From IMG/VR virus record IMGVR_UViG_3300037067_015270, positions 32,001-96,000 of that record: 64,000 nucleotides of DNA; one strand, given 5' to 3'. Position 1 is the stretch's first letter, and every line of letters starts with the position of its first letter. Shown here piece after piece: positions 6,977 through 57,087 of the stretch. The stretch is from a virus (Duplodnaviria; Caudoviricetes). The translations under genes were made by a program, and so were the position numbers. Under the pieces are notes generated by a model, which had not been told where the DNA came from, searched no databases, and saw only the letters and a list, made by a program, of their open reading frames with translations.

Positions 6977-7626
6977 TAAATTACTACGTCCGGGATTGAG
7001 AAATTATTTGGTAATATATTCATAATGACAACAGTAAATGTGTCATCTTTAACGAGTGTTGTACTATTCAACAATTTAATCGTTGTAGCGGTATAATATT
7101 CACAGTTGCGTGGATCTATTAACAAACCATTGATATAAACGAATGGCCTTGTTTTAATCAGATCAATTTCACCTTGTAGCGTTACTGGAACTGGGATTTC
7201 TGTCGCCGAAGTAGATGCGACATAACCACCAAAAGTCGTTACAGGAGCAGCTCCGGATAATTTGCTGTTTGTACTAGTATACCACGCACTCAACGTTACT
7301 GGAATTGTAGTTATTGTTTCTAATTCGATAACGCTAGCAAGACTCATCCAAGAACCAGTGATGTTTTCAAGACTGCTACGCCAGATTTTGAGTGTCAAAT
7401 CATTCAAGTCGAACCATAACGTTCCATCGCGGTATTGAGTTGGTTCATCGTAAGACGATTGATTTGCTAAAAGGCTAATGTACCATAACAATAACCAATC
7501 CCATCTAGGTTGTGCATCAGGATAAGGAAATCTTTCATGGTCTTGCCCAGACAAACCAACATCAGATGCAAAATCAATCAGTGGCGCTGGAAATCGTAGT
7601 CTATTGTCTGGAAGCATATTCTTCAA
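6976..7626 (-). CDS. Putative virion structural protein
   Basis: DGTLWFDLNDLTLKIW and VYINGLL motifs, common in tail/baseplate proteins. Confidence 0.5.
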   Translation of the reverse strand: MKNMLPDNRLRFPAPLIDFASDVGLSGQDHERFPYPDAQPRWDWLLLWYISLLANQSSYDEPTQYRDGTLWFDLNDLTLKIWRSSLENITGSWMSLASVIELETITTIPVTLSAWYTSTNSKLSGAAPVTTFGGYVASTSATEIPVPVTLQGEIDLIKTRPFVYINGLLIDPRNCEYYTATTIKLLNSTTLVKDDTFTVVIMNILPNNFSIPDVVI

Positions 7627-30418: not shown

Positions 30419-32840
30419 GATCTAGCTCGGGCGACACAGCAGATCTCATATGGCCACAGCCATAACACTGACCTTTCTCATCAGGCGATTCCGATGAGCC
30501 GCAATTTGGACACATACTGCCTTCTGGGTCGATAGATCCAGGAGATTCAGCATTATATTCTGGTTCATCGTCACCAAATTCATCAACTGTATCTGCTTCA
30601 CCCCCCATACCATAATCATCTATACTACGTCTATCTGGGTCAAATCCACGATAAAATGCTTCACGTTCCGGAGTGTGAATTGAGGTACCCCACGCCTCGG
30701 ACATCGTTTGGAAAGCCCTTTGGGCGACCGGCCAGCTAAATGGCCCAACAACCGCAGCACCCCAGTTATGGTTCTTGACACGGCAAGCAACACCCTCAGA
30801 GACTACGCGATCAGCAAAGGCATTCGCAACTTTCCCGGTCTTGAACAGAATCTTGCCTTCACAAGCGATAGGGTCACGTTTCTTCATCTTGGCTAACGGT
30901 AAGCGATGGCGGTAAATGATTGTCTTCTGATGGGGCATTGTATATAGAGCCTCAAGAACAATCTTGCTATTACCACATGCTTGCGATAATTCTTCAACAA
31001 CCGCTAATGCATCCGTTAGTGCAGAGAAAGTAGCTGATGCCCCTTCCGTTTTCACGCCAAAATGGACAGTATATTTCCCGGCACGGCCAATTTTCTTCGC
31101 ACCATTAGCAATTGCTTCTTTCGCAACGCGAGACAGCTTTAGGATATTCTCCTTCATGGTCCCGCTACCGCCTTTAAAAGCAGCTTGACCACCCGTATTC
31201 TTCATCTTGGGTTTCAATGGAGTCTGCTTGCCTGGGACTTCGCTAGTTATACCATCAGATGCTGTACCAGACGTGCTCTCACAAGTTTCTTGTGGAGGAA
31301 TAGCAGTCCCCAGCTCTCCCTGACCACTCTTCGTCTTGTCTGTTGTGTAGAAACCATCCTTATTGGCTTTGGCGTCTTCACCATTCATTCCGCCAAGTTC
31401 ATCACTTTCACGCAGGAAATCACAAAGCATACAACCGTTCGCATCCAAGGTTGTACCACAGTGTTTGCATCGCCCTTCTTTTACTACGCGACCACGACGT
31501 CGCGACTCAGTCTTAACGACTTCCTTTGATGGATCTATCGCATTCTTTTCATCATCTTCGCGGCCCTTCATAGCAACAGACGTTGCTTTCCCTTTGACAG
31601 CAGACCCGATCTGCTTCATCATATTGCCGCTTTCCGGCGATCCGGTTTCATCACCAATCTCAGAATCTTCACAGACCTCTTCTGTTTCTTCTTCGCCGCC
31701 CTCTTCACCTTCTCCATCAAAAGGGAGGTCACCCTCTGCTGCTTCGTCTTCTGGGGTTTCGGTTGATTCATCATGCCCAGCGATCAAATTAGCAGCTCTT
31801 CCAAAATCAACACTTATCGCTTGAAACACATCAGCAAGATCATCAGAAGCAGGTTCAACTTCGATACCTTGTTCAAATTCACCAGGTATCTCGGCAACTC
31901 CTTGTTCTGGTGATCCACCCTGTTCTATGTCTTGCTCTGGAACTTCTGGCGGTATCTCGTCATCTTCCTCGACTGGGACGTCGGCAACCGCACCAGATCC
32001 AACCATTTCAGAAAGCAGGCGTGGTTGCCAGAATCTACCACTAGCATCATTACCCTCGTAGAACATATACTTGCGGCTGGCTGCCATCAAAGTCTTCAAA
32101 TTCCGTTCCGATAAAGTTGTCTGCACGCCGTGAGCATAGCACAACTGTTGGAAGTCATCTAAGCAGACATATGAAGACTGTCCACTATAAGATTCGAACA
32201 AACTCTGAAGGTTAACGTTATCACCTTCCATGATATTGGCAATATTCGCAAGTGACCACTCCTCTGCCACGCTGCCCGACATAGTGCTCTTGCTGCCCTT
32301 TAGGGTTTCAAATTGTCCACCCTTATTCTTCTGCATCGAGTTCTGCCCTAGCTCTGACCCCATTGTACCAATGGCAGTTGTGATGTCATCGCTAGCAGAG
32401 CCATTCTTGATTATTTCTGTCTCAAAGCCGCCACCAGTATTCTTCTGCTTCGTCTTAAGATTCATGTCCTTAAGATGAGTAGTAATACCATCGCAAGCTT
32501 CACCAGAAGTGCTTTGACCAAATTCTTCAAAGCCACCAGTATTCTTTTGTTTGCCGCCGAGCCTATCAGTGCGGCCACCAATCTTATCCATGAAGTCGCC
32601 TTTGACTCCCTTGACGTCTTGGACTGCTTCAGAAATACGTGACTTTGCCATCTTGAACTCCTGCAATTTAATTGGTGCCTCAATATCCTGGCACTCTGGA
32701 TCAAGCTCGTTGAGTACCCTTTTTACCGGTTTTCCGGGTTGTCTAACAGTCCGTTCCGGATGACCCATACGATTGGTCTTATCCGTTTCATCTTTGTCTA
32801 CATCTGCGGCATTAGGAACATTCTTTGGTTTATCTGCCAT
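30333..32840 (-). CDS. Large acidic protein, probably an internal head/core component
   Basis: 835 aa with Glu/Asp-rich tracts, repeated QKNTGG motifs and many hydrophobic-x-E sites. Confidence 0.5.
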   Translation of the reverse strand: MADKPKNVPNAADVDKDETDKTNRMGHPERTVRQPGKPVKRVLNELDPECQDIEAPIKLQEFKMAKSRISEAVQDVKGVKGDFMDKIGGRTDRLGGKQKNTGGFEEFGQSTSGEACDGITTHLKDMNLKTKQKNTGGGFETEIIKNGSASDDITTAIGTMGSELGQNSMQKNKGGQFETLKGSKSTMSGSVAEEWSLANIANIMEGDNVNLQSLFESYSGQSSYVCLDDFQQLCYAHGVQTTLSERNLKTLMAASRKYMFYEGNDASGRFWQPRLLSEMVGSGAVADVPVEEDDEIPPEVPEQDIEQGGSPEQGVAEIPGEFEQGIEVEPASDDLADVFQAISVDFGRAANLIAGHDESTETPEDEAAEGDLPFDGEGEEGGEEETEEVCEDSEIGDETGSPESGNMMKQIGSAVKGKATSVAMKGREDDEKNAIDPSKEVVKTESRRRGRVVKEGRCKHCGTTLDANGCMLCDFLRESDELGGMNGEDAKANKDGFYTTDKTKSGQGELGTAIPPQETCESTSGTASDGITSEVPGKQTPLKPKMKNTGGQAAFKGGSGTMKENILKLSRVAKEAIANGAKKIGRAGKYTVHFGVKTEGASATFSALTDALAVVEELSQACGNSKIVLEALYTMPHQKTIIYRHRLPLAKMKKRDPIACEGKILFKTGKVANAFADRVVSEGVACRVKNHNWGAAVVGPFSWPVAQRAFQTMSEAWGTSIHTPEREAFYRGFDPDRRSIDDYGMGGEADTVDEFGDDEPEYNAESPGSIDPEGSMCPNCGSSESPDEKGQCYGCGHMRSAVSPELDLGVRGDDEIDNFDFDQPEPVRRPIPRRV

Positions 32841-52026: not shown

Positions 52027-52842
52027 TTACCAGTCTCCGCCAGACCCACCCCCGCCAAAATCGCCACTACCGCCAGAGTAGCTACTATCACTACTGCTGC
52101 CTCCGCTACTACCCCCACTACCAGCAATGTCGCTGATCACACTACAAATACCGCCACCGCCACTATTGGATACTACTATAGCAATGATAATCAGGATGAC
52201 AATTGCTATGAGTATGATCGTAGCGATACCCCAACCGGTAAGCCAAAAACTAACCGCTGCGGCCCCTGCAACTGCACTAGCCGCAGCGAGCGGGGTCGTG
52301 GATTTTTGTTCAGCTTCCGCCCGCCCTTCAATACGGGTTAGCATAGCATTGATAGCTACTTCGATTCCACCAGCATAGTTTCCAGCCTTGAATTGTGGTT
52401 TAACTTGCTCAGCGAGAATACGGCGACAGACAACATCGGTCAGCTTGTCGCCAATACCACGGCCAGTAGTAATCCATGTTTTGTGTTCTTTGACCGCGAT
52501 GACAAATAGAACGCCATTGTCCTTATCCTTTTGGCCAAGTTTCCATGACTTGGCAGTTTCAATAGCGAATTGGCTGATATCCCTGCCATTCAATGTTGAA
52601 ACAGTAAGAATGACGATCTGATTGCCGGTTTTCTTCTCATATGCAAGAAGAGAATCGCTAAGACTCTTGACTTGGGCCTCGGTGAGAATCTTAGCATCGT
52701 CGTTCACCGGCCCACGCAGAGTTGGTATAAAAGAAGCGGCGCGTGCTTTCTGAATCGCCGGAATCAGCAATCCAGCCAGAATGCCGATAATGGCGATGAC
52801 TACAAGTAATTCGACGAGTGTAAAACCATGTTTGCGTTTCAT
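52027..52842 (-). CDS. TPM (YgcG) domain protein with a prepilin-type N-terminal cleavage/methylation leader
   Basis: Leader [32 protein letters not shown] domain VNDDAKIL...[13 protein letters not shown]...GRG...[14 protein letters not shown] helix and [13 protein letters not shown] tail. Confidence 0.85.
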
Positions 52843-53069
52843 TCTTCTCCTCCACAGCCTCCTAGAAATGGGGTAGTAACGGTTGTATAGCCTTTCGCGA
52901 CAGATTGATACAGACGCAGCCCTTGCCTTAAAATCTGTTCCGGCGTAAGTTCTGTCGTCTTACACAACTCGTCGATAGCCGCAGCTTCTTCTGGTGTTGC
53001 GTGGAATTCGATAACCACCATTTTAGTGGAGCCTCCGACGAACCTCAGTTTATGAATTAGACCAGACAC
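52839..53069 (-). CDS. Small ribbon-helix-helix-like protein
   Basis: [24 protein letters not shown]. Confidence 0.45.
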
Positions 53070-53672
53070 CTAGAATTCCACTTTCGGTGCCGTCTTTGCA
53101 GCTTCGACTGCCTCGAAGTTAGCCCATTTCTTGAAGCCGTGGCTGTTGGCTACTATACCAGAAAACAAGCCACCAATTGTGATATTTTGTTCCTTGACCG
53201 CTTTGTTATATCGGTCGCGCTCTTCCTTAATACGATTCTCGGTACCTTCAAGCTGCGATTGGAGGTCCTTGAAATTCTCGTTAGCCTTCAATTCAGGATA
53301 CTTCTCCTGTACCACCATCAAGCGAGACAAGGCCGACGACAGATCACCTTGGGCCTCTGCAAACTTCTTCATCTGAGCAGGATCAGCAGAAGCCGCGTTA
53401 ATATTGATCTGTCCGACCTTCGCCCGAGCATTAGTGACGTTCGTGAAGGTATCTTGCTCGTGCTTCGCGTAGCCCTTCACGACACTGACGAGGTTTGGAA
53501 TGAGATCGAGCCGCCGTTGGAGAGCAGATCCGACGTTAGCAAGCTTCTCTTCGCAGGTGTTATTGCCGACGTTGAGAGAACTATAGCAGCTCCACCACGA
53601 CAGACCGGCGATGACGACGATTAGTAATACGACACCAACAAGACCCAATGCAGCCCAAAGACAACCCTTCAT
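53070..53672 (-). CDS. lemA: LemA family protein
   Basis: QRRLDLIPNLV..VKGYAKHE and EKYPELKANENFKDLQSQLEGTENRI. Confidence 0.92.
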   Translation of the reverse strand: MKGCLWAALGLVGVVLLIVVIAGLSWWSCYSSLNVGNNTCEEKLANVGSALQRRLDLIPNLVSVVKGYAKHEQDTFTNVTNARAKVGQININAASADPAQMKKFAEAQGDLSSALSRLMVVQEKYPELKANENFKDLQSQLEGTENRIKEERDRYNKAVKEQNITIGGLFSGIVANSHGFKKWANFEAVEAAKTAPKVEF

Positions 53673-53857: not shown

Positions 53858-54430
53858 TCAGTTTTGTGGTCGTATGCCGTCCTGTGGCCCCTGCTTAGTT
53901 TGCGACGTCTTCGCTGCTTGTTCATTGAACAGCGACAAGGTATTACCAATTGGTATTCCACCGACATTTGCCTTGGTAACGGCACTTTCGATCTTCTTGA
54001 TGCTACTGGACTCGCTGATGTGAGACATGACACCGAAGATGCTTGCATAGGCACAAGCTTCAATCTTCTGCTCATCGGTTAGTTTATCAAAATGCATTAC
54101 AGCAATCTTCTCACGTCCGCATCGCGCTTTCCTGCGCATCGACTTCATATCACCACGCCGTTTGATGAGATTGTCCTCTCCCATCATATTGCGGAAGCAA
54201 CGAGCATACCGGTCCCAGTCAATATATACATTGTAATCTTGCAGCAAATGCTTCTTAGCTGTCGTGATGCTTCCATACTTGACAGGCTGGCCGATTGCAG
54301 CACTCAACTCCTCCTTGGTGACACTCTTCTCGGGAGTATCCAAACCCCTGAACATAGCGATGACCGTTCGTGTCGCCTCGCTCATGACCTTGATTGGTTG
54401 TCGTGGTGGTACGAATTGTGCTTCTGACAT
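53858..54430 (-). CDS. Hypothetical protein, candidate accessory factor of the RAMP/array system (winged-helix-like N-terminus)
   Basis: 190 aa. Lies between array units and the terminator. VTKEELSAAIGQPV. Confidence 0.6.
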   Translation of the reverse strand: MSEAQFVPPRQPIKVMSEATRTVIAMFRGLDTPEKSVTKEELSAAIGQPVKYGSITTAKKHLLQDYNVYIDWDRYARCFRNMMGEDNLIKRRGDMKSMRRKARCGREKIAVMHFDKLTDEQKIEACAYASIFGVMSHISESSSIKKIESAVTKANVGGIPIGNTLSLFNEQAAKTSQTKQGPQDGIRPQN

Positions 54431-54481
54431 CTCATAACCCTTTCAATTAGTGATGAAACATAAACAGTACTCAGTAAGGAC

Positions 54482-54856
54482 GCTTGTGTTGTCGTGTGGA
54501 GGCTAATCCGGTCACGTCTCGTCTTGACATGGCCAGTGCAGATCTTTGTGTTCGGCGAGTCACTGCTCACCGGGTTATCGAGTCCCGTCAAATTGAATGA
54601 ATGATTGCAAACGAATCTCGTGTTGTGCGGTTGGATCGTGTACCGTGCGGTAACGTTGAGTCATAACATGTCAGGACGCAAGTTGTCATATCGTAAGCTG
54701 TCGCATCGCGTACTGGATCAATCATACAAAAATATCCTCCACCGGTCAATTGACCGGTGGAGGCTCGTGTTATCGGGTCACATTCCGACTAATTCGGTCA
54801 TATCAAGACCCGTACTGTCTCGTGCCATCGAGGCACATGCTGGCGCGATGCGTCAG
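54482..54856 (-). ncRNA. Three pentamer-periodic candidate guide units downstream of the RAMP gene (54486-54596, 54620-54719, 54767-54856)
   Basis: On +, RYN-NN pentamers in register after a GCTT/ATCTC/GCTC leader, e.g. gtg tt atc gg gtc ac att cc gac ta att cg gtc at. Confidence 0.75.
54728..54763 (-). terminator. Perfect 28 bp palindrome followed by a U-tract
   Basis: CCTCCACCGGTCAATTGACCGGTGGAGG (54736-54763), then ATATTTTT on the minus strand. Confidence 0.7.
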
Positions 54857-55452
54857 TCCTGCTTCACCCAGGTCAGTTTCTCGACACTGAACCGACCGTA
54901 ATAGCCGTTATTGCGCGGGCGGAAGAAGCCGATACCGATGAACCGACCGGCTTCTTGGATGTGCTTCAGGAAGATCTCCTCGGTAATCGACTCTTCCAAG
55001 ATGTGGAATACGACGTCCACTTCCCAATTGTTGATGATCGGGAAGCACTTCCAAACGCGCTTGCTGCCGCCGCGTTTGCCGTCGCTGGGCACATACAACC
55101 AAATGCTCTCGACGTTCTCGGCGATATCGGGCAAGACGATCGGTTCGGGGTCGACCAAGGTACCGGCCTCGAAGTACTTCGTATACGTCGCCTTGCCTTT
55201 GCCCGGCACTTGCATCGACAGGTATTTCGCCGCCTCGGCAAGACAATTCTTGAACGCCATCGGCGGGATGAAGACGTGACCGGCGTTGGGGCCGTCCTTC
55301 ATGATATGGAGCCGATTGCGCCAGGTCCGCTTCTCGTAGTCATCCGGTCGCTCCTTGTCGTTCTTCGGGACGTCCATGACGTAGTTGCGACTTTGGCCGT
55401 AGGGCGAGACACCTTTCAGACGAACAGTAGCAGTAATCATAGTAGCATTCAC
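54853..55452 (-). CDS. Stand-alone RAMP (Cas7-like) protein
   Basis: First strand VRLKGVSP, HVFIPPMAFKNCLAEAA (cf. IPGSSLKG) and C-terminal Gly-rich loop GRFIGIGFFRPRNNGYYGRF. The start may be the ATG at 55440. Confidence 0.8.
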   Translation of the reverse strand: MNATMITATVRLKGVSPYGQSRNYVMDVPKNDKERPDDYEKRTWRNRLHIMKDGPNAGHVFIPPMAFKNCLAEAAKYLSMQVPGKGKATYTKYFEAGTLVDPEPIVLPDIAENVESIWLYVPSDGKRGGSKRVWKCFPIINNWEVDVVFHILEESITEEIFLKHIQEAGRFIGIGFFRPRNNGYYGRFSVEKLTWVKQD

Positions 55453-55656
55453 TCCAGTAACATAGGGTTAGAAAGAAAGTAACAGAGAAACAGAAGCTTG
55501 TCTTGATCTATCACATTCAGGGCGGACTAATCTGATCATGTCTAAGCCCGAGCGGGTAGTAGATCGTGTGTTCGATGTTTGGAAAATAGCGCTTGTCATG
55601 TCAAATACCGTCTCAGGTGGGCGTGGCCGGTACTGGGCCGTTCCGCCGCATACTTG

Positions 55657-55685
55657 GTTATAGCACCAATGAAGTGTGTTCTTAA
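55657..55685 (-). promoter_or_regulatory. Promoter TTAAGA-N17-TATAAC (extended -10) for an array unit
   Basis: Exact 17 nt spacing, GTGC immediately before -10. Confidence 0.65.
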
Positions 55686-55773
55686 TTACAAATGAAGCTT
55701 GTCGCGTCGTGTCAGGTTGAATTCGGTGCTGTCATGTCATGGCCCGTCAAAATTGGTCTTGTCGAGCCGATGT

Positions 55774-55802
55774 GTTATAGCACCAGCGAAGCGATTTATT
55801 AA
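55774..55802 (-). promoter_or_regulatory. Promoter TTAATA-N17-TATAAC for an array unit
   Basis: Exact 17 nt spacing, GTGC before -10. Confidence 0.65.
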
Positions 55803-55907
55803 TTGCAAAAGCTTGTCTTGTCATAAGCTGTCGAGTCCCACCTTGTAATGTCGGAGATCGTCGGTACTCGAAGCGGCCTGTCGTGCCGCGTCTGGTCGCG
55901 TCTAGCT

Positions 55908-55936
55908 GTTGTAGCACAAACGAAGTGATTTATTGA
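55908..55936 (-). promoter_or_regulatory. Promoter TCAATA-N17-TACAAC for an array unit
   Basis: Same layout as its neighbours. Confidence 0.55.
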
Positions 55937-56499
55937 TTACAGGTATCGAGATAACACGTTGCAGTTTTTGATATATTGTTAGTGAATCAATGATGTTCGT
56001 TAGAGCGATAGTCGCGGCGATTAAGCCATCAGATCACAGTATAGCTGTCCGGGTCTAGACGTTATTATTTCCATGTTGTAAATGAAGCTCGTGTTGTCCC
56101 GTCGCAAAGCGTCGAGTCCCGACCGGGACTGGGGCGTCTGGTACTAACTTGACCAGTCCGGGTCGCGTCATTGTACTTCGTGAGTATTTGTGTGTATTAT
56201 TTAAAAGCTTGTGTCGTACTGTCCGGTCGTAGCAGAGCATGTGCCGACGAGTCAAGTGCTATCGAGATGAGTCGAAGGCTGTCAAGACGGGCTAATGCTA
56301 GTTTTATAATTGCAATCAAATGAAGCTTGTCTAGTCACGTCGAGTCGGGTCGAGTCTGGGCCGGTCAGGGGCCGTACTATAATGTCATGTCCCAACTGGT
56401 CGAGACGCGACGTGATTTCTTGTGATTTCGAAAAATGAATCTTGTGTTGTCTAATCGAGTAATGTCCCGTCGAGTGCTGTCCCAGCGGGTCATGGGCTG

Positions 56500-56715
56500 T
56501 CAAGGTCGGTCGTGTGTTATCGAGTCGCGTTGCGTCAGATGCCAATTGCCACAGTCTGGGCATTTATATGCCGCCATTCTACTAGTGGTCTCTGCCGACG
56601 ATTTGCTCGGATATTTCACCTTGCCGAGACACCCCTGTAGTCTACGAGCACGATTCTGCATCAACAGCCACTTCTGCTTTCGTCGCTCGGCGGCTGCTGA
56701 CGCAGTATGTTTCAT
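56500..56715 (-). CDS. Small Zn-binding phage protein embedded in the array
   Basis: MKHTAS...CLGKVKY...AYKCPDCGNWHLT motif. Confidence 0.55.
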   Translation of the reverse strand: MKHTASAAAERRKQKWLLMQNRARRLQGCLGKVKYPSKSSAETTSRMAAYKCPDCGNWHLTQRDSITHDRP

Positions 56716-56790
56716 AATCTTTGTCTGGTCGAGTGCTGTCTTGTCAAGTCGAGTCGCGGGGCGACTCGCGCTAACCAGTCTTACTGCTAT

Positions 56791-56819
56791 TTTATAGCAC
56801 AACATCTAGTAGTTATTAA
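56791..56819 (-). promoter_or_regulatory. Promoter TTAATA-N17-TATAAA at the 5' end of the array
   Basis: Exact 17 nt spacing, GTGC before -10. Confidence 0.65.
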
Positions 56820-56826
56820 TTCTAGA

Positions 56827-57087
56827 TCAAGTCTGCCCTGTCAGACGTCGAAATTCAGCTTCGATATCGCATTCTGTTTCAACTGTTTCATAGGCACCAA
56901 TGCTAGTACCTATAAACTCCCTGATTTTGTTCTCAATATCCAATGGAGTCATCGGCGGCTGCCAAGTCGCCTTGTATTCGACCAATTCTTCCCAACACTC
57001 GTTGCAGATATATCTCGTGCCATCGAGGATAAGCCTATCGCACATAACGTTCGGGCAGCTACGTCGATCACAAGCTAATACGCTCAT
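56827..57087 (-). CDS. Small Cys-rich phage protein
   Basis: CDRRSCPNVMCDR...YICNECWEEL. Confidence 0.6.
   Translation of the reverse strand: MSVLACDRRSCPNVMCDRLILDGTRYICNECWEELVEYKATWQPPMTPLDIENKIREFIGTSIGAYETVETECDIEAEFRRLTGQT

Follow-up and report, generated by a model that had tools for sequence, protein, structure and literature searches.

A single Cas7-like gene set between long tracts of interleaved triplets and dinucleotides raises the question of what such tracts may specify in a phage that carries them without a CRISPR array. We address this question for positions 54482-56819 of a 64,000-nt stretch of DNA, hereafter the window, which covers positions 32,001 to 96,000 of the IMG/VR virus record IMGVR_UViG_3300037067_015270 (Caudoviricetes). 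CheckV rates the record, 122.5 kb in all, as 34% complete, so that it probably represents part of a very large phage. We are highly confident that the locus is a VIPR system of this uncultured large phage, silencing genes of rivals by means of its guides. This identification draws on the homology of the protein to a known Vipr, its Cas7/Csm3-like fold, arrays carried by the gene strand, a repeat grammar based on the triplet GAY, and the decoding of one guide, guide F, into a protein motif.

VIPR (Viral Interference Programmable Repeat) is a CRISPR-related, RNA-guided DNA silencer published in April 2026 (bioRxiv 10.64898/2026.04.26.720920, hereafter the discovery paper, and 10.64898/2026.04.26.720927). 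It consists of a minimal RAMP protein (Vipr) and guide RNAs (vrRNAs) in which a fixed triplet alternates with two variable bases (NN), joined by an accessory gene (vap); most such systems are encoded by phages or proviruses, and they lack a CRISPR array (discovery paper). A further mark of these systems is a vrRNA of about 100 nt that co-purifies with Vipr. The type II system of Escherichia phage SUSP1 comprises Vipr, vap1 and four GGY/NN vrRNAs (PDB 36pp; bioRxiv 10.64898/2026.04.26.720920, 10.64898/2026.04.26.720927 and 10.64898/2026.10.15.759431).

Pentamer arrays flank a single RAMP gene

A strong 5-nt period runs across 54482-56819, with nothing comparable elsewhere in the window or in the 122.5-kb record. 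Autocorrelation at period 5, a check proposed in a first-pass annotation of the window, exceeds the mean by more than three standard deviations in clusters at 54.48-54.58, 55.68-55.73 and 56.28-56.40 kb, all within the locus; the few remaining peaks of the window correspond to ordinary repeats. All nine runs of at least six GTC-like pentamers detected in the window fall inside 54486-56757, and a scan of the complete virus record gave no further arrays. Counted at lag 5 over the non-coding flanks (1.8 kb), pairs of GAC triplets number 27, against 1.76±1.36 (maximum 7) in 500 dinucleotide-preserving shuffles. This signal lies about 18 standard deviations above the shuffles, and lags 3, 4, 6 and 7 give 0-3 pairs.

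We set unit borders by anchoring on a common 3' motif and obtained 12 minus-strand units (Table 1). The first-pass annotation had described 12 units of 12-21 pentamers around a RAMP gene of about 200 amino acids; this picture holds with slight corrections, the units containing 12-23 pentamers and the gene encoding 195 residues. On the minus strand, nine guide units are followed by vipr, three further units and vap. Over 188 pentamers, the first triplet position is G in 60%, the second A in 65% and the third a pyrimidine in 93% of cases (C 74%, T 19%). The commonest triplet is GAC (70 of 188 pentamers), with CAC second, then GAT, GTC and TAC. The two N positions carry only 0.02 and 0.09 bits and the dinucleotide is at background composition, in agreement with the earlier description of a GAY triplet and a free dinucleotide in a minus-strand RNA. 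The shared end motif and AT-rich linkers that had been noticed are also real: each unit terminates in (G/C)AC-(A/G)AG(C/A)TT(C)ATTT (U for T in RNA), and linkers measure 20-50 nt, apart from two longer non-periodic gaps behind units A and E.

A Vipr homologue with a Cas7-like fold

The gene between the arrays had been predicted to encode a lone Cas7-like RAMP, with a suggested likeness to VIPR. Both expectations are supported by our searches. Phmmer against PDB sequences returned one significant match, 36pp_D, 'SUSP1 Vipr protein' (E 1.7e-6), in an alignment spanning the thumb and the glycine-rich loop. Comparison by hhalign of the family alignment (A1, 29 homologues) with the SUSP1 Vipr sequence, drawn from the phage record, gave 97% probability (E 1e-10). 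An AlphaFold (AF2) model built from the Vipr alignment reached a pLDDT of 89, and its best Foldseek matches are type VII Cas7 and type III Csm3 (E 1e-7 to 1e-5; 8yhe_F, 9j9e, 6xn3_F and 6ifn_F, with TM about 0.5). The loop rich in glycine (G-loop) reads GIGFFRPRNNGYYG over residues 169-182, and the hairpin of the thumb occupies approximately residues 111-136. We conclude that the window protein is a Vipr, a sequence-level homologue of SUSP1 Vipr with a Cas7-like fold. A 199-aa open reading frame (ORF) starting at GTG 55452 lies in the same frame as the 195-aa gene.

The family is large: a database clustered at 90% contains 2820 homologues, and there are 1112 clusters at the 50% identity level. 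The phage GenBank collection contains 120 matching records, mostly Felixounavirus-like coliphages including SUSP1. Pfam has no family for either Vipr or vap, and PHROGs gave only phrog_4652, of unknown function.

Guide F spells a methylase motif

SUSP1 guides read their target with one base skipped, the skip falling on codon wobble positions, and guide F can be read in the same way. Taken in antisense as NNx codons, its NN series corresponds to the FxGxG S-adenosylmethionine-binding region of N6/N4 DNA methylases, and all 18 dinucleotides decode into the peptide h-h-L-D-P-F-h-G-S-G-S-A-L-V-A... With a one-base skip, a 10-pentamer core has four exact matches in IMG/VR viral contigs, whereas the same 20 bases read contiguously have no match in IMG/VR. 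For a 13-pentamer core, metagenome contigs contain 14 exact matches, all of which read LDPFMGSGSALVA and encode LVLDPFMGSGSALVAA; in viral contigs, neither this pattern nor the full 18-pentamer pattern was found. The best full-length match covers 32 of 36 bases (89%), above the published match criterion of 80% (discovery paper), with mismatches confined to the first three and last two pentamers. It lies in a gene that Pfam calls PF01555 N6_N4_Mtase, the sole gene scanned. Guide F thus spells a methylase motif under the one-base-skip reading, which supports carrying this rule over to the GAC sub-form of VIPR.

Published VIPR systems do not target themselves (discovery paper). Likewise, none of the twelve NN series of the window beats shuffled controls in the phage's own 122.5 kb at skips of 0, 1 or 2. 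Nor was any self-match found among the decoded peptides, and this record holds no DPFxGSG methylase.

Searches with other guides fared less well. Guides D and K decode to ribbon-helix-helix-like peptides; no gene could be tied to them, and neither has a target at threshold. For guide K, an 11-pentamer pattern has no match in viral contigs and a 9-pentamer pattern has one, which at 27/38 is below threshold and encodes a GVPRTDIIRA-type helix. This match lies at about 7305-7361 of a 388-kb contig (L101, IMGVR_UViG_3300029288_000054) and shows that the decoded peptide of guide K is a real protein type. In the genome collection, neither 12 pentamers of guide L nor 11 of guide D were matched, and a search of viral contigs with 9 pentamers of guide D was equally negative. 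We also considered that the guides may be aimed at vipr or vap of related phages; there is no evidence for this, since all guides scored no better than shuffled guides against 82 related loci.

Related loci and turnover of guides

We collected 80 Vipr homologue loci from IMG/VR viral contigs. The search of homologue neighbourhoods suggested in the first-pass annotation proved productive: counting SUSP1, period-5 arrays are present in 66 of 81 loci, and the gene strand bears a pyrimidine-third triplet in nearly all of these 66. As a positive control, the SUSP1 locus passed through the same detector yields GGT on the gene strand, which validates both the detector and the strand call.

One relative (L086) is syntenic with the window, with Vipr 86% and vap 74% identical. 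In both, a gene of 86 aa is followed by an array, vipr, a second array and vap. The two loci share units B and L almost unaltered; H and I have diverged, and the rest are not the same. Turnover of this kind is to be expected of NN series that serve as guides, with the remainder as scaffold.

The 3' ends of guides in other relatives deserve mention. [quoted passage not shown] The GGC-type locus L032 has the handle GGC-AA-GGC-AA-GGT. These handles comprise two or three pentamers in which NN is AA, so that the 3'-most dinucleotides are probably scaffold and not guide.

The fixed triplet varies with Vipr residues

Among the 80 relatives, the gene-strand triplet is GGC in 38 loci, CGC in 10, GAC in 9 (plus the window), GTC in 2, GTT in 2 and GGT in 1. 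It switches repeatedly between GGC, GAC, CGC, GTC and GTT within a single clade whose members are 53-67% identical to the window Vipr. We computed the mutual information between the triplet and each column of the alignment in turn. For base 1, position 133 ranks first and is a perfect predictor (0.66 of 0.66 bits; 59 distinct loci): F occurs with G, and Y or M with C. Among the relatives, all 10 CGC loci have Y133, and all others F133. For base 2, positions 172 and 113 tie in first place (0.54 of 0.83 bits), followed by position 15; R172 and E113 accompany G, while F, Y, V or T at 172 with L or I at 113 accompanies A. G15 together with F/Y172 is seen in 7 of 10 GAC loci, and S15 with R172 in 56 of 56 non-GAC loci.

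Eight further homologues were picked by their residues alone, and their contigs were then checked for the triplet. With residues given in the order 15/133/172/173, G-F-F-F was found with GAC (2/2), S-Y-R-F and S-M-R-F with CGC, and S-F-V-F and E-F-T-F with GAC; for S-F-Y-F, one contig showed a weak GAC and the other nothing clear.

In the cryo-electron microscopy (cryo-EM) structure from SUSP1, the first guanine is read by H17 and D177, the second is held by R138 and W178, and the pyrimidine is accommodated by a pocket, R179 among its residues, that excludes purines. R138 and D177, which hold the two guanines, correspond in the alignment to positions 133 and 172. The window Vipr keeps R179 and the aromatic residue (as R174 and F173) and has F in place of both R138 and D177 (F133 and F172). 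The assignment is crosswise to that in SUSP1, with position 133 tracking base 1 and position 172 tracking base 2.

It is conceivable, at a little under even likelihood in our judgment, that the fixed triplet represents a switchable protein-RNA code and not a frozen scaffold. With related loci and a Vipr tree of poor resolution, tests on independent pairs are underpowered (one or two pairs on well-supported branches, four to six on all branches), so the link between residues and triplet is a correlation only. Seven loci with S15, F133 and R172, the residues of GGC-type proteins, are exceptions, three of GAC type (L020, L027, L051) and four of GTC/GTT type (L031, L047, L034, L048); other positions must therefore also contribute. 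If two to four Vipr residues did set the triplet, this would explain why a GGY-to-GAY change destroys function in SUSP1 while GAY would work here. Triplet switches would then give mutually orthogonal Vipr-guide pairs, and a phage could escape hijack of its Vipr by the 'solo' guides of rivals, such as those described for SUSP1 satellites. They would also offer a toolbox of silencers free of cross-talk and a route to orthogonal programmable DNA binders. This by-product of the comparison could matter more than the locus itself.

Positions 15, 133, 172 and 173 are hypervariable within the otherwise conserved motifs SPY-x-QSR, KC-x-P and GIG-x-x-RPR. More than 80 residue combinations at these positions occur among 270 sequences (P0001-P0270), which hints at many more fixed-triplet variants than we sampled.

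Comparison with known systems

The window locus resembles that of SUSP1 in most of its parts. Both have homologous Vipr proteins of about 195 residues, with the conserved G-loop ...G-x-G-x-x-RPR...GRF and the thumb. Both have 5-nt units in which a triplet ending in a pyrimidine is joined to a free dinucleotide; these units flank the gene on either side and are carried by its strand. Both also have a small accessory gene nearby downstream, are phage-borne and lack self-targets. They differ in several respects. Over their C-terminal two thirds, the Vipr proteins are no more than about 29-39% identical, and vap is barely alignable with vap1. The window has twelve units, nine of them upstream, versus four in SUSP1, and vap comes after the downstream guides whereas vap1 precedes them. 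The window triplet is GAY, and its guides end in a short unstructured 3' motif instead of a pseudoknot tail of about 40 nt.

The relation to class 1 CRISPR systems is more distant. Vipr shares with type VII Cas7 and type III Csm3 an RRM core, a glycine-rich loop and a thumb, and like Vipr these subunits polymerise along a guide RNA at fixed periodicity. However, Cas7 has a period of 6 nt with one base flipped, whereas VIPR has one of 5 nt with three bases sequestered, repeat and guide being interleaved within each RNA. The window also lacks the hallmarks of CRISPR adaptation loci that had been reported missing from it: Cas1, Cas2 and CRISPR-like repeats were searched for and are absent from the 122.5-kb record, while Cas3, Cas5 and Cas6, listed as missing by the first-pass annotation, were not searched for separately; a large effector subunit was not seen either. 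An Rfam search of 54300-57000 (E ≤ 1) found nothing, so that hammerhead-processed arrays are absent from this locus.

The first-pass annotation suggested that the GAY form would be a distinct variant of VIPR. The form itself is confirmed, and it is not undescribed. The discovery paper mentions 'a related consensus' besides NNNGG, YNNNG and NNNNG variants, with seven published types, and a survey of October 2026 by entropy periodicity (21 clusters, 6,318 sequences) names 'GAC/NN or CAC/NN' arrays beside Vipr-like folds (bioRxiv 10.64898/2026.10.21.760802). These share the repeat grammar of the window, GAC being commonest and CAC second. As far as the accessible part of its text goes, the survey reports neither targets nor a residue-to-triplet analysis or locus anatomy. 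The locus is a VIPR and a new example of a sub-form already in print, not a new kind. What is new here is the methylase motif of guide F, the tracking of residues and triplets in about 70 related loci, and guides without the structured tail of SUSP1. The locus is of value as a well-resolved case, combining twelve guides of clear grammar, a relative showing turnover and a guide that decodes to a methylase motif.

Proposed mode of action and alternatives

By extension of the SUSP1 work, we propose the following mechanism, in which assembly of a filament, a DNA rather than RNA target and silencing as the outcome are all carried over from that system. Each unit would give rise to an RNA of roughly 70-120 nt. 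Vipr protomers would polymerise on this RNA, one per pentamer, gripping G-A-Y and exposing the two variable bases. The earlier suggestion that each subunit grips one triplet stands as regards the interleaved guide; it is refined by the cryo-EM paper, where two adjacent protomers share a triplet. The exposed dinucleotides would pair with double-stranded DNA reading NNxNNx..., one target base being skipped per step. The complex would then occupy and silence the target gene, probably with the help of a DNA-binding vap. Targets would be genes of competing mobile elements, outside the phage itself.

Several observations weigh against this reading. Transcription of the units, processing of the RNA and its binding by Vipr are predicted here from the DNA sequence. 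The window triplet is not the canonical GGY, and in SUSP1 a change from GGY to GAY abolishes silencing (discovery paper); the Vipr of the window must read an A at position 2, an ability to which covariation points. The terms used in the literature, 'a related consensus' and GAC/NN, suggest that GAY defines a sub-form and does not exclude membership in VIPR. The type II clades (those of SUSP1 and P. fulva) are marked by an invariant structured 3' tail of about 40 nt and a DNA-binding accessory protein of vap1 type; in the window this tail is absent, 56-nt tail windows folding at z = 0 to +1 relative to shuffles. Guide F lacks an exact full-length match, and its motif is so highly conserved in proteins that it identifies a family of genes rather than one particular rival. 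For the remaining eleven guides, the scans made (exact-pattern scans for D, K and L; all guides against the 82 loci) gave no target at 80% or more. Finally, units H and I, with many off-consensus triplets, may be decaying.

Among alternatives, the one that survives best, at a low probability, is a VIPR locus that acts otherwise than SUSP1, by binding RNA, recruiting a nuclease or regulating its own phage. Published VIPR types vary in their accessory genes, some having nucleases or helicases, and the lack of targets for eleven guides, the divergent guide tail and the weak comparability of vap with vap1 all leave room for this idea. Indeed, hhalign of the vap profile (A2) against SUSP1 vap1 gave a probability of only 26% over 93 columns. 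However, Pfam detects no nuclease or helicase signature in the vap family, the guides match the phage's own genome neither as DNA nor as decoded peptides, and guide F points to a foreign methylase gene. In our main reading the gene is the Vipr accessory of this clade: vap homologues adjoin vipr in 64 of about 82 loci, and in 56 they lie directly downstream on the same strand. The A2 profile has a weak match to the MGMT winged-helix domain (E 0.06), the single-sequence fold is poor (pLDDT 43), and a protein atlas returned only viral clusters without names. The product may be a winged-helix DNA binder, although a role in DNA binding is a guess.

Less likely still, and in our view improbable, is that the functional RNAs come from the plus strand, as (GUC-NN)n guides with a conserved first purine, the protein gene being merely antisense to them. 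A period of 5 by itself is blind to strand, and the plus-strand reading can be phrased as 'purine first'. Yet the G-N-Y grammar on the gene strand is that of the published GGY type and recurs in SUSP1 and nearly all of the 66 array-bearing loci. Behind unit J, moreover, the perfect hairpin (-26.2 kcal/mol, z = -6.2; the same hairpin occurs in relative L086) has its U-run solely on the minus strand, and TGnTATAAY elements on the minus strand are conserved in L086. These signals, together with the third-position pyrimidine, argue for minus-strand transcription of the arrays.

The promoter-like elements take the form TTAAKA/TCAATA, 17 nt, TGCTA(T/C)AAC before units F, G and H; that of unit G is covered by a direct-repeat family (D5). 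In L086, TTAATAAC...CACTGGTGCTATAAT is kept ahead of two units. Several units may thus possess their own extended -10 promoter. A generic sigma-70 scan showed no enrichment over shuffles, so that these elements remain candidates. Some linkers are too short to hold a separate promoter, and part of the array may therefore be trimmed from a precursor. Unit J is probably co-transcribed with vipr, ending at the hairpin terminator.

That the pentamer tracts are DNA-level elements (iterons, binding sites of the 190-aa protein or curved DNA) beside an incidental RAMP-like gene is the least probable reading. In its favour, the units are seen here as DNA and the 190-aa protein may bind DNA. Against it, dozens of phage contigs that are unrelated to one another carry arrays together with a Vipr homologue, and the triplet of the arrays covaries with Vipr residues at RNA-contact positions. 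In addition, guide F, through its dinucleotides and a skip resembling that of codons, spells the motif of a foreign gene, and the homologous tracts of SUSP1 are proven Vipr-bound RNAs.

Organization of the locus and neighbouring sequences

Table 1. Features of the VIPR locus, in window coordinates
Feature	Position	Strand	Description
vap candidate	53858..54430	-	190 aa; Vipr-accessory gene of the clade
Downstream array	54486..54841	-	units J, K, L and a degenerate unit
Unit L	54545-54486	-	12 pentamers
13th unit	near 54597-54548	-	short, degenerate; in downstream array
Unit K	54714-54620	-	19 pentamers
Intrinsic terminator	54727..54763	-	behind unit J; perfect 12-bp hairpin and U-run, minus strand only
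Unit J	54841-54767	-	15 pentamers; begins 12 nt past vipr stop codon
vipr	54853..55440	-	195 aa, ATG behind GGAG; minimal Cas7-like RAMP
Upstream array	55500..56782	-	units A-I (nine vrRNA units); (NN-GAY) pentamers ending (G/C)AC-AAGCUUCAUUU
Unit I	55574-55500	-	15 pentamers
Unit H	55654-55595	-	12 pentamers
Promoter-like -10 before unit H	55662-55657	-
Unit G	55765-55701	-	13 pentamers
Promoter-like element before unit G	55774..55808	-	TTAATA, 17 nt, extended -10 TGCTATAAC
Unit F (guide F)	55904-55815	-	18 pentamers; NN series as antisense NNx codons gives methylase FxGxG region
Promoter-like element before unit F	55916-55908	-	TGCTACAAC
Unit E	56160-56091	-	14 pentamers
Unit D	56300-56211	-	18 pentamers
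Promoter-like element before unit D	56308-56303	-	TATAAA
Unit C	56413-56329	-	17 pentamers
Unit B	56558-56444	-	23 pentamers
Promoter-like element before unit B	56568-56563	-	TATAAA
Unit A	56782-56723	-	12 pentamers
Promoter-like element before unit A	56796-56791	-	TATAAA

Two sequences within the upstream array stand apart from the guide units. The non-periodic gap of about 150 nt between units E and F (55935-56085, minus strand) contains a stretch, CTCTAACGAACATCATT..., that is also present in L086 at about 2236-2262; it may represent a unit in decay, a promoter region or a further small RNA. A 70-aa ORF between units A and B (56500-56712, minus strand) carries a zinc-ribbon-like K-C-P-D-C-G-N-W-H motif, its final 13 or so codons overlapping the first pentamers of unit B. 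Pfam gave only sub-threshold matches for this ORF. L086 keeps this ORF, the two copies differing by 7 synonymous and 6 non-synonymous changes (counted by eye), and such conservation suggests that a small protein is really made.

Immediately downstream of the locus (52027-53672, minus strand) are two genes seldom expected together in a phage, one of the LemA family and one with a TPM domain. A prepilin-type N-terminal methylation motif opens the TPM gene, and a glycine-rich tail closes it. Farther away in the window, positions 1197-1703 hold a long run of imperfect direct repeats of 30-33 nt, rich in GAT, GGC and GAC codons, which probably encodes a D/G-rich repeat protein.

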